Shown in pieces: positions 61,901-63,290 of a stretch of DNA of 64,000 bases. Source of the stretch: Hormiphora californensis. Lineage: Eukaryota; Animalia; Ctenophora. The translations under genes and the position numbers were made by a program. Position 1 is the first letter of the stretch. Every line of letters starts with the position of its first letter. The notes under the pieces are model-generated. The model did no database searches, was not told the origin of the DNA, and was given only the letters and a program-made list of their open reading frames with translations. Where the stretch lies: NCBI GenBank assembly GCA_020137815.1, contig CM035350.1, positions 5,146,001 through 5,210,000 on the forward strand, in the 5' to 3' direction.

Positions 61901-63290
61901 ACCCTACAACTTTCTTTCTTAACGAGAGTTGTAGGGTGCAATTGTAGGGTGCAATTGCAGGGTGTAATAGGTCCTCCTGTTACACCCCTACAGGGTGCAA
62001 ACTTCTTTCTTAACGAGACAGAAAGTGGATTGCACCCTGCAATTGCAGGGTGCAATTGCAGGGTGCAATTGTAGTTTTTGTCTCGTTAAGAAAGGCCCTA
62101 AAACTAAAAGAAGCAAATGAGAGAGGCCCGTTGAAACAAAGACTGGTGTGTGTATGAGATGCCGCGTTGGGTTAAGTGTGTGATGACAGATCTGGAATGG
62201 AGATCACGTGATACAAGATGACGGTATATCATTGGTGCAGATATATACTGCCTGTCAACACACCAGCTCGCTTGAAAATTAGCGCAGACTTGCAGCACCC
62301 CAGCTACACATTTCGACAGCAAACACTCTACACACATATATATATTTGTTGAAATGGCGAGGGAAAGAAATGAGAGTTGTTGGAAGAAATTAAAGCAAGA
62401 AAAAGGATAGAGCGAGAGAGATAGAGTGAGTTTAAATTAGCCAGCTCATATACTAACTAGTTGTGAACGTTAATTTGAACAACAAGCTCGGCACTCGTTT
62501 ATTACACATCTATTTCTCATAATCACGTGACTATGTGTATTAGAAATAGATGTCACGTGTTAATTACATAGTTGGTGTCACGTGACACTTACCAGTTTCC
62601 TAATCCTGTCCATAACATTGTCGATGACCTCCTTTCCAACGGTGTAGAAGCCCCGGGCGTAGTTATTGGCGGCATCCTCCTTGCCAGTGATCATTTGCTC
62701 TGGAATAGGAATGGAGGTCAGTTGCAGCTATATTGCACAGAACAAAGAGAGAAATTATACTCCTTCATAAAGACAGCTAATGCTCCTTCATAAAGTTAAT
62801 ATACTAAGTGTGATAAAATTTACCTGGATGGAAAAGAGCTCGATATTCCCCTGTCCTGATTTCGTCTGAAAAAGAGAATGGATAGGGTTAGATTGTGCTT
62901 CACGTTCATTCAATAACTCATCATCAATGCAGTAAAAACTGATCCAGAATGAAAAACTGATCCACAACGCTGGCCAGCAAGTTCTTTAGGGTATCCTACC
63001 AATGACAGTGGGTTCAAGGTCAAGGAAAATAGCTCGGGGAACGTGTTTTCCACGGCCTGTCTCCTCGAAGAAGGTGGAGAAACTCTCATCAGTTCGAGCT
63101 TCTTTAGCGCCGATGGTTCCGTCCTGCATTCAAAAGGGAGGGAGGGTTGTCAAGGTAACGTACCGATGACAGTTGGCTCAAGATCCAGGAAAATCGCACG
63201 TGGGACATGTTTTCCCTTGCCCGTTTCCGTAAAAAACGTCGAGAAGGAGTCGTCTGTTCGTCGTTCAGACTCGTTTTGGATAGTGCCGTC
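58995..63290 (-). CDS. TUBA: Divergent alpha-tubulin, partial (first 32 codons not found in the window); exons about 63290-63164 OR 63123-63000, then 62865-62824, 62699-62593, 61495-61343, 60204-60039, 59925-59742, 59617-59440, 59297-58995
   Basis: [94 protein letters not shown]-terminal DYEEVG..EY. Confidence 0.96.
60955..60968. promoter_or_regulatory. Palindromic RFX X-box-like motif in a tubulin intron
   Basis: GTTACCATGGTAAC fits GTNRCC(n)RGYAAC; function not shown. Confidence 0.4.
61562..62098. mobile_element. PIF/Harbinger (Tourist-like) MITE in a tubulin intron
   Basis: TIR GGGCCTTTCTTAACGAG / CTCGTTAAGAAAGGCCC, TAA TSD, internal 13-bp TGCACCCTGCAAT arrays in inverted orientation. 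Confidence 0.9.

Follow-up and report, generated by a model that had tools for sequence, protein, structure and literature searches.

Evidence for mutually exclusive splicing of tandem K40-loop exons in a ctenophore alpha-tubulin gene, and for a probable second reading frame in one of them

Tubulin diversity normally comes from separate genes and from modifications. A survey of the tubulin family regards splice variants as 'very unlikely' and, in the sections available, names a fly beta-tubulin as the only case (PMC4202323). In Drosophila betaTub97EF, exons 4B and 4C are mutually exclusive tubulin exons (PMC4202323; 10.1101/185827). The ctenophore gene described here resembles betaTub97EF, as that gene is presented in these sources, in its tandem duplicated exclusive exons of about 40 codons, which lie in the conserved tubulin core and are conserved across a clade. 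It differs from betaTub97EF in being a ctenophore alpha-tubulin gene, in swapping the K40 loop, in contig depths of about 1:1 and in having one exon that is probably doubly coding. The main text of PMC4202323 mentions neither Mnemiopsis nor Pleurobrachia nor ctenophores as a group, while its supplements could list ctenophore tubulins. A search of mostly open-access literature, on the level of main texts, returned no report of exclusive exons in an alpha-tubulin or in any ctenophore tubulin, and the same main texts held no report of a dual-coding tubulin exon.

CDKN2A, with INK4a/ARF, and GNAS, with XLas/ALEX, are dual-coding loci, and altFUS, as far as the available description goes, offers a further comparison of this kind. 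As in INK4a/ARF and XLas/ALEX, an alternative exon of the ctenophore gene enters a shared exon in the other frame, giving an unrelated and highly basic predicted protein. Unlike in those loci, the second frame is hosted here by the gene of a structural housekeeping protein, the exon shared by both frames belongs to an exclusive pair, and the second protein is a predicted one.

The window analysed is a stretch of 64,000 nucleotides from Hormiphora californensis (contig CM035350.1), in which tblastn finds a single tubulin gene (Table 1). The two exons that the original prediction placed in this gene, here called A and B, were recovered as described: exon A comprises 127 nt (42 codons and 1 nt) and exon B 124 nt (41 codons and 1 nt), with a gap of 40 nt between them. 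Both have the predicted translations, are stop-free, and possess CAG acceptors and GTA donors with phase 0 in and phase 1 out. The many synonymous differences noted between the exons were likewise confirmed, as 29 of the last 32 codons specify the same residue and 19 of these 29 differ synonymously. Beyond the pair, seven exons reach down to 58995, most of them confirmed by RNA joints, and the other introns of the gene measure 113-1138 nt. No exon for tubulin residues 1-31 was detected in the window by tblastn, and this exon must therefore lie beyond position 64000.

Table 1. Exons and spacer of the ctenophore alpha-tubulin gene, in window coordinates
Feature	Position	Strand	Remarks
Alternative upstream exon	63575..63682 (5' end undefined)	-	ATG at 63636; phase 2 splice onto exon A; from X4 contig
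Exon A	63164..63290	-	Mutually exclusive exon (almost certainly), tubulin residues 33-74; +1 frame probably also read from alternative upstream exon
Spacer, 40 nt	63124..63163	-	A donor, predicted branch A at 63150, pyrimidine tract, B acceptor
Exon B	63000..63123	-	Mutually exclusive exon (almost certainly), tubulin residues 33-73; codon usage ordinary
Shared exon after A/B	62824..62865	-	Tubulin residues about 75-88; also within +1 reading frame
Shared exon	62593..62699	-	+1 stop (62693-62691) overlaps tubulin Met91 codon (62694-62692)
Constitutive tubulin exon	61343..61495	-	
Constitutive tubulin exon	60039..60204	-	
Constitutive tubulin exon	59743..59925	-	
Constitutive tubulin exon	59440..59618	-	
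Last coding exon	58995..59297	-	Ends at tubulin stop

The gene product is an alpha-tubulin. A Pleurobrachia bachei protein (P0190), which stood in for it in the structure search, contains exon A letter for letter and shows about one difference in the next 240 residues; it matches solved structures with an E value of 1e-267, and all 60 matches listed are alpha chains. Within residues 2-63 of P0190, the segment of residues 2-32 is present twice in tandem in identical copies, either through faulty assembly or because one more exon, located upstream of the window, is duplicated. One intron of the tubulin gene contains a 537-nt element (61562-62098) that is flanked by TAA on either side, ends in inverted repeats of about 15 nt and has 13-nt repeats, both tandem and inverted, in its interior; we take it to resemble a PIF/Harbinger-type miniature transposon.

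The exon pair is also found in a relative. In an independent assembly, Mnemiopsis gene ACHWQZ_G007948 includes, under a single gene id, isoforms KAL5262395.1 and KAL5262396.1 (451 aa), whose 15 differences all fall between residues 36 and 60 and which NCBI lists only as 'hypothetical protein'. In an exon tree built without P0025, one of these isoforms groups with exon B of the window and two other B-type exons at a weak support of 80/64, and the second isoform scores closer to exon A. The sequence comparisons thus far speak for the old duplication that had been proposed. A metagenome scan yielded five loci (L001-L005), all of the A-type and none genomic, and exon B DNA of relatives was not among them. 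One of these loci, L005, passes into unrelated sequence close to the 3' end, probably as a chimera, and in P0197 a B-type exon is preceded by non-tubulin sequence (residues 1-21).

Seven of the 24 listed sequencing runs were examined, of which X1 (study P1), X7 (P3) and X8 (P2) are informative for both exons; X7 and X8 are recorded as RNA, and X1 is RNA by guess. The predicted junctions of both exons to 62865, namely 62865|63000 and 62865|63164, occur in these three of the seven runs, and hence in three studies, at a likeness of 85-90, a setting prone to other organisms' reads, and with a short side of only 29 nt. The exon A joint 62865|63164 was also found in X4, which shows A alone, and the remaining three of the seven (X2, X3 and X5) cover neither exon and give no evidence of absence. 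A joint between A and B, predicted never to form, was detected neither in four runs nor among the joints listed in the remaining runs, in contigs that drop rare forms. Furthermore, X1, X7 and X8 each contain a 178-nt contig with B and a 181-nt contig with A, with 0-1 other letters, and these lengths correspond to 25 nt of the upstream exon, the exon itself (124 or 127 nt) and 29 nt of the downstream exon. Since exons A and B have their 5 first letters and 1 last letter in common, an assembly bubble with 30-nt overlaps (for an inferred assembly word size of 31 letters) predicts contigs of 25+124+29 and 25+127+29 nt, as seen, and the exact lengths fit one upstream exon common to A and B. The loose letters at the upstream ends of the two X1 contigs are the same, and they agree with the last letters of the preceding coding exon of L004. 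The intron after B has zero depth. Depths of the paired B and A contigs are 37.6/36.4 (X1), 20.5/16.5 (X7) and 22.4/20.8 (X8), a ratio near 1:1 that is only a hint, as contig depth reflects expression poorly. Exons A and B are almost certainly spliced in a mutually exclusive manner between common flanking exons. In X4 (window positions 62976-63149), the A contig stops at the very point at which a second path would join it, the joint that follows has a greater depth (31.6 vs 12.2), and no B contig is among those found; B may have been filtered out here, and the choice of promoter might be linked to that of exon.

The ways in which joint inclusion was proposed to be avoided agree with the layout of the spacer. 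Inclusion of both A and B breaks the frame, with a stop within 7 codons of B, and the branch-like motif is present with its A 13 nt past the first base of the intron; a YTRAY motif stands 16-36 nt ahead of the acceptor in six of the seven constitutive introns of the gene. Human and yeast systems have a minimum donor-to-branch distance of about 50 nt (PMC6692369). The distance at this locus falls below 50 nt, given 40 nt for the entire spacer and a predicted 13 nt to the branch point, with the reservation that a human and yeast limit may not be that of ctenophores. The arrangement is like that of the alpha-tropomyosin pair, in which the branch point is too near the upstream donor for both exons to be joined, but differs in that the whole spacer is only 40 nt, the 13-nt distance and the branch point are predicted, and the limit is taken from human and yeast (PMC6692369, in its available sections). 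Steric exclusion by the spacer, from a predicted branch point, is likely. A steric block of this type would account for exclusivity, with the frameshift caused by A+B inclusion as a back-up.

Exon A is also reached from elsewhere. A 264-nt contig of X4 (108+127+29) joins 63682-63575 to exon A and then to 62865, and in L001, L003 and L005, from other ctenophores, a homologous exon is joined to the respective exon A. These four transcripts have in common a Met-Lys-Trp start and the same phase onto exon A. The frame that begins at the ATG enters exon A one base off the tubulin frame (+1), is 79 codons long in the window and 86-88 codons long in the relatives, and stops on the Met91 codon, with stop and Met91 start overlapping in 4/4 transcripts examined. 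The predicted +1 protein has a pI of 11.7-11.9. No tubulin exon lies ahead of the alternative exon in the four transcripts, in contigs that cannot show transcript starts. In X1, X7 and X8, the A contigs continue without a break from the main upstream exon, and in X4 the A contig does so from the alternative exon, use of which therefore seems to depend on the sample. Just upstream of the alternative exon are a long GA repeat (63756-63891) and three CCAAT-type boxes (63748-63940), a possible internal promoter. Ctenophores trans-splice leaders (PMC8527503), which may bear on the 5' end of the exon. We envisage that the alternative exon would serve as a first exon from an internal promoter and that its frame would be translated in the fashion of INK4a/ARF.

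Mnemiopsis gene ACHWQZ_G007948 also has two 361-aa isoforms that start at Met91, which are probably longest-ORF calls, such as transcripts of the alternative-exon type would yield. Searches with the +1 protein gave no match in Pfam or in a word-indexed search, and two matches but no full-length homologue in a HMMER search, from which P0198 was dropped as a repeat protein. A single-sequence fold was of low confidence (mean pLDDT 59). Two other routes were considered and rejected: a -1 frameshift back into tubulin at a U-rich slippery-like run of exon A, which is in the right phase, is contradicted by L001, which has no such run, and by constraint that reaches codon 91; inclusion of the alternative exon with both A and B restores the tubulin frame arithmetically, but no A-B joint was seen.

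The overlap of the two frames differs from the remainder of the gene in its divergence. Tubulin-synonymous differences in codons 33-91 compared to codons 92-430 amount to 1/58 vs 70/326 for the window and L004 (p=7e-5) and to 1/58 vs 80/328 for L001 and L003 (p=1.3e-5); codons 75-91 alone, with both close pairs pooled, give 1/32 (p=0.0025). The private exon just upstream does diverge, and low divergence of the 5' end is therefore no explanation for the constraint in the overlap. Between L001 and L003, this private exon has 15 differing sites, 10 of them at third positions, comprising 10 synonymous and 2 non-synonymous codon changes together with an in-frame 6-nt indel. Read in the other two frames it gives 2/12 and 2/11, with stops present. 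L001 and L005 differ in it by 2 changes, both synonymous. Codon usage is also unusual in exon A: NCG codons take 5/12 chances in A, 0/11 in B and 1/88 in the rest of the gene, rare codons make up 15/42 in A, 7/41 in B and 21/339 downstream, and rare codons common to the window and L001 number 5/50 in the overlap and 3/305 beyond it. Many of the 'synonymous' differences that look odd when A is compared with B would be accounted for by the alternative upstream exon and a second reading frame.

Also in favour of a selected frame is P0199, an ORF on a contig of another genome that corresponds to the +1 frame of exon A, is open and is identical to that of the window in 32/42 positions; it fits the P0029/Mnemiopsis exon type best by a margin of only 1-2 residues. 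On the other side, the openness of the +1 frame is in itself uninformative, with 0.83 expected by chance. Between the window and L001, the distant pair, constraint is weak (15/50 vs 139/305, p=0.045), and 38/58 residues of the +1 frame are identical, against 27-37 in blocks further downstream. Nor is double coding universal, as the A-like exon of L002 contains +1 stops at codons 73-74 and shows no constraint. On this comparative evidence, the second reading frame is very probably under selection. The duplication would then have freed exon B from a double-coding constraint that still binds exon A. It is probable, overall, that A-or-B splicing produces two loop-variant tubulins and that the alternative exon, through its shifted frame onto A, codes for a distinct basic protein some 80 residues long. 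A wider reading is possible but doubtful: a ctenophore-wide gene with three products, namely a pair of alpha-tubulins with swapped loops and a basic microprotein, conserved and condition-specific, that overlies the K40-loop exon in a different frame, in which the exon was duplicated to escape a two-frame conflict and the microprotein acts in the cilia or gametes that use the isotype.

The exons could be mutually exclusive and the alternative transcript merely regulatory, that is, targeted for decay or carrying an upstream ORF, with its frozen synonymous sites being RNA splicing signals. Splicing signals can freeze synonymous sites too, and a stop far upstream of later junctions normally invites nonsense-mediated decay; here, six exon junctions still follow the stop at codon 91. 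The results of the Pfam, word-indexed and HMMER searches, in which no protein homologue of the +1 frame was found, are in line with such a transcript, and if the main upstream exon were spliced to CAG 63658 as an acceptor, a stop would be introduced. We consider a purely regulatory role improbable, as the private exon changes mainly at third positions (10/15) and has its indel in frame, the Met-Lys-Trp start and the phase are retained in two lineages, the constraint extends across the shared exon as far as the +1 stop and no further, and the transcripts reach 5' of CAG 63658 or have long non-tubulin leaders. The +1 frame could also be a leader, the stop of which overlaps Met91 and leads by re-initiation to the 361-residue truncated tubulin annotated in Mnemiopsis. 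This reading draws on the stop/start overlap in all four transcripts and on the recurrence of 361-aa proteins in clusters, but that stop is forced by Met91-Ile92 and is found in L002 even without an open frame, the 361-aa entries are probably longest-ORF calls, and a tubulin without residues 1-90 would be expected to lose part of the nucleotide-binding domain, which makes re-initiation very improbable. That A and B are alleles or pieces of paralogous genes, placed in tandem by an assembly error, is hardly credible. The near 1:1 depths would fit alleles and the window does hold other near-identical duplications, but one gene id covers both forms in the independent Mnemiopsis assembly, the spacer holds a donor, a branch motif and an acceptor, and the flanks are identical, yet the exons differ at 19/29 synonymous codons.

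The remaining alternative concerns the function of the swapped loop. The two exons are like the alpha-tubulins acetylated at K40 by alphaTAT1/MEC-17 in the position of the loop (PMC11006419, in part), and unlike them in that neither exon has a lysine at 40, the loops are shorter and the canonical context is missing. Compared to the solved alpha-tubulin 7rro, exon A carries a Ser in place of K40 and a loop that is 1 residue shorter, and exon B is 2 shorter; both lack the Gly-Gly-Gly run. According to the original prediction, exon B supplies an acetylatable lysine and exon A none, which may keep ciliary and cytoplasmic microtubules apart. A loop lysine is indeed present in 4/4 B-type exons (at position 39 in the window and at 37 in the other three) and absent from the loops of window A and Mnemiopsis A, and the K40 loop (residues 37-48) is in contact with microtubule inner proteins (PMC11006419). 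However, 3/8 distinct A-type exons also have a loop lysine, at 37 or 39, the lysine moves between these positions and does not follow exon type across species, and in Tetrahymena, according to the available part of the same source, acetylation made no detectable change in contacts between loop and inner proteins (PMC11006419). The contig depths of about 1:1 in three studies contain no hint of a partition between tissues, which they cannot exclude. An acetylation switch is not supported by this comparison and is decidedly improbable. A literature search on alphaTAT1 substrate rules found nothing relevant. Comb plates stain for acetylated alpha-tubulin (10.1101/2022.03.27.486007), which other isotypes could supply. 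A difference in shape or charge is the more likely role of the loop swap, compared to K40 acetylation; through sequence and charge, the swap would tune contacts with lumenal binding proteins.

In this gene, the lumenal loop to which inner proteins bind is exchanged through splicing, and this in the animals that possess the largest ciliary arrays. Since the loop is swapped by splicing, its function becomes testable against an otherwise unchanged protein. If the proposed double coding is true, a selected second frame would be a rarity in a protein that ranks among the most conserved of eukaryotes, an unannotated ctenophore protein would currently be misread in annotation as a truncated tubulin, and the pair would provide a natural test of exon duplication as an exit from overlapping-frame conflict.

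Other features of the window were recorded as well. Two intronless ORFs are duplicated in tandem (27787-28932 / 35152-36293 and 33662-34969 / 36985-38260) at 95-98% identity; one of the ORFs has a weak CaKB-beta match below the cut-off and the other a C2 domain, and a LINE ORF with endonuclease and RT (29722-32763) lies between the copies. Direct as well as inverted copies 445-556 nt in length, all perfect (100%), are packed together at 16536-18035, as either a young fold-back element or an assembly artefact, and a tandem array with a 32-nt period at 21366-22800 has halves that face each other and form a large inverted repeat. Further genes include ribosomal protein S8e as one uninterrupted ORF at 9549-10295 (-), an intronless gene or a retrocopy, a dynamin-family GTPase at 5690-7687 (+), a sulfotransferase at 12445-13238 (+) and a gene with CH and with IQ repeats at 44514-47700 (+), which is presumably ASPM-like.
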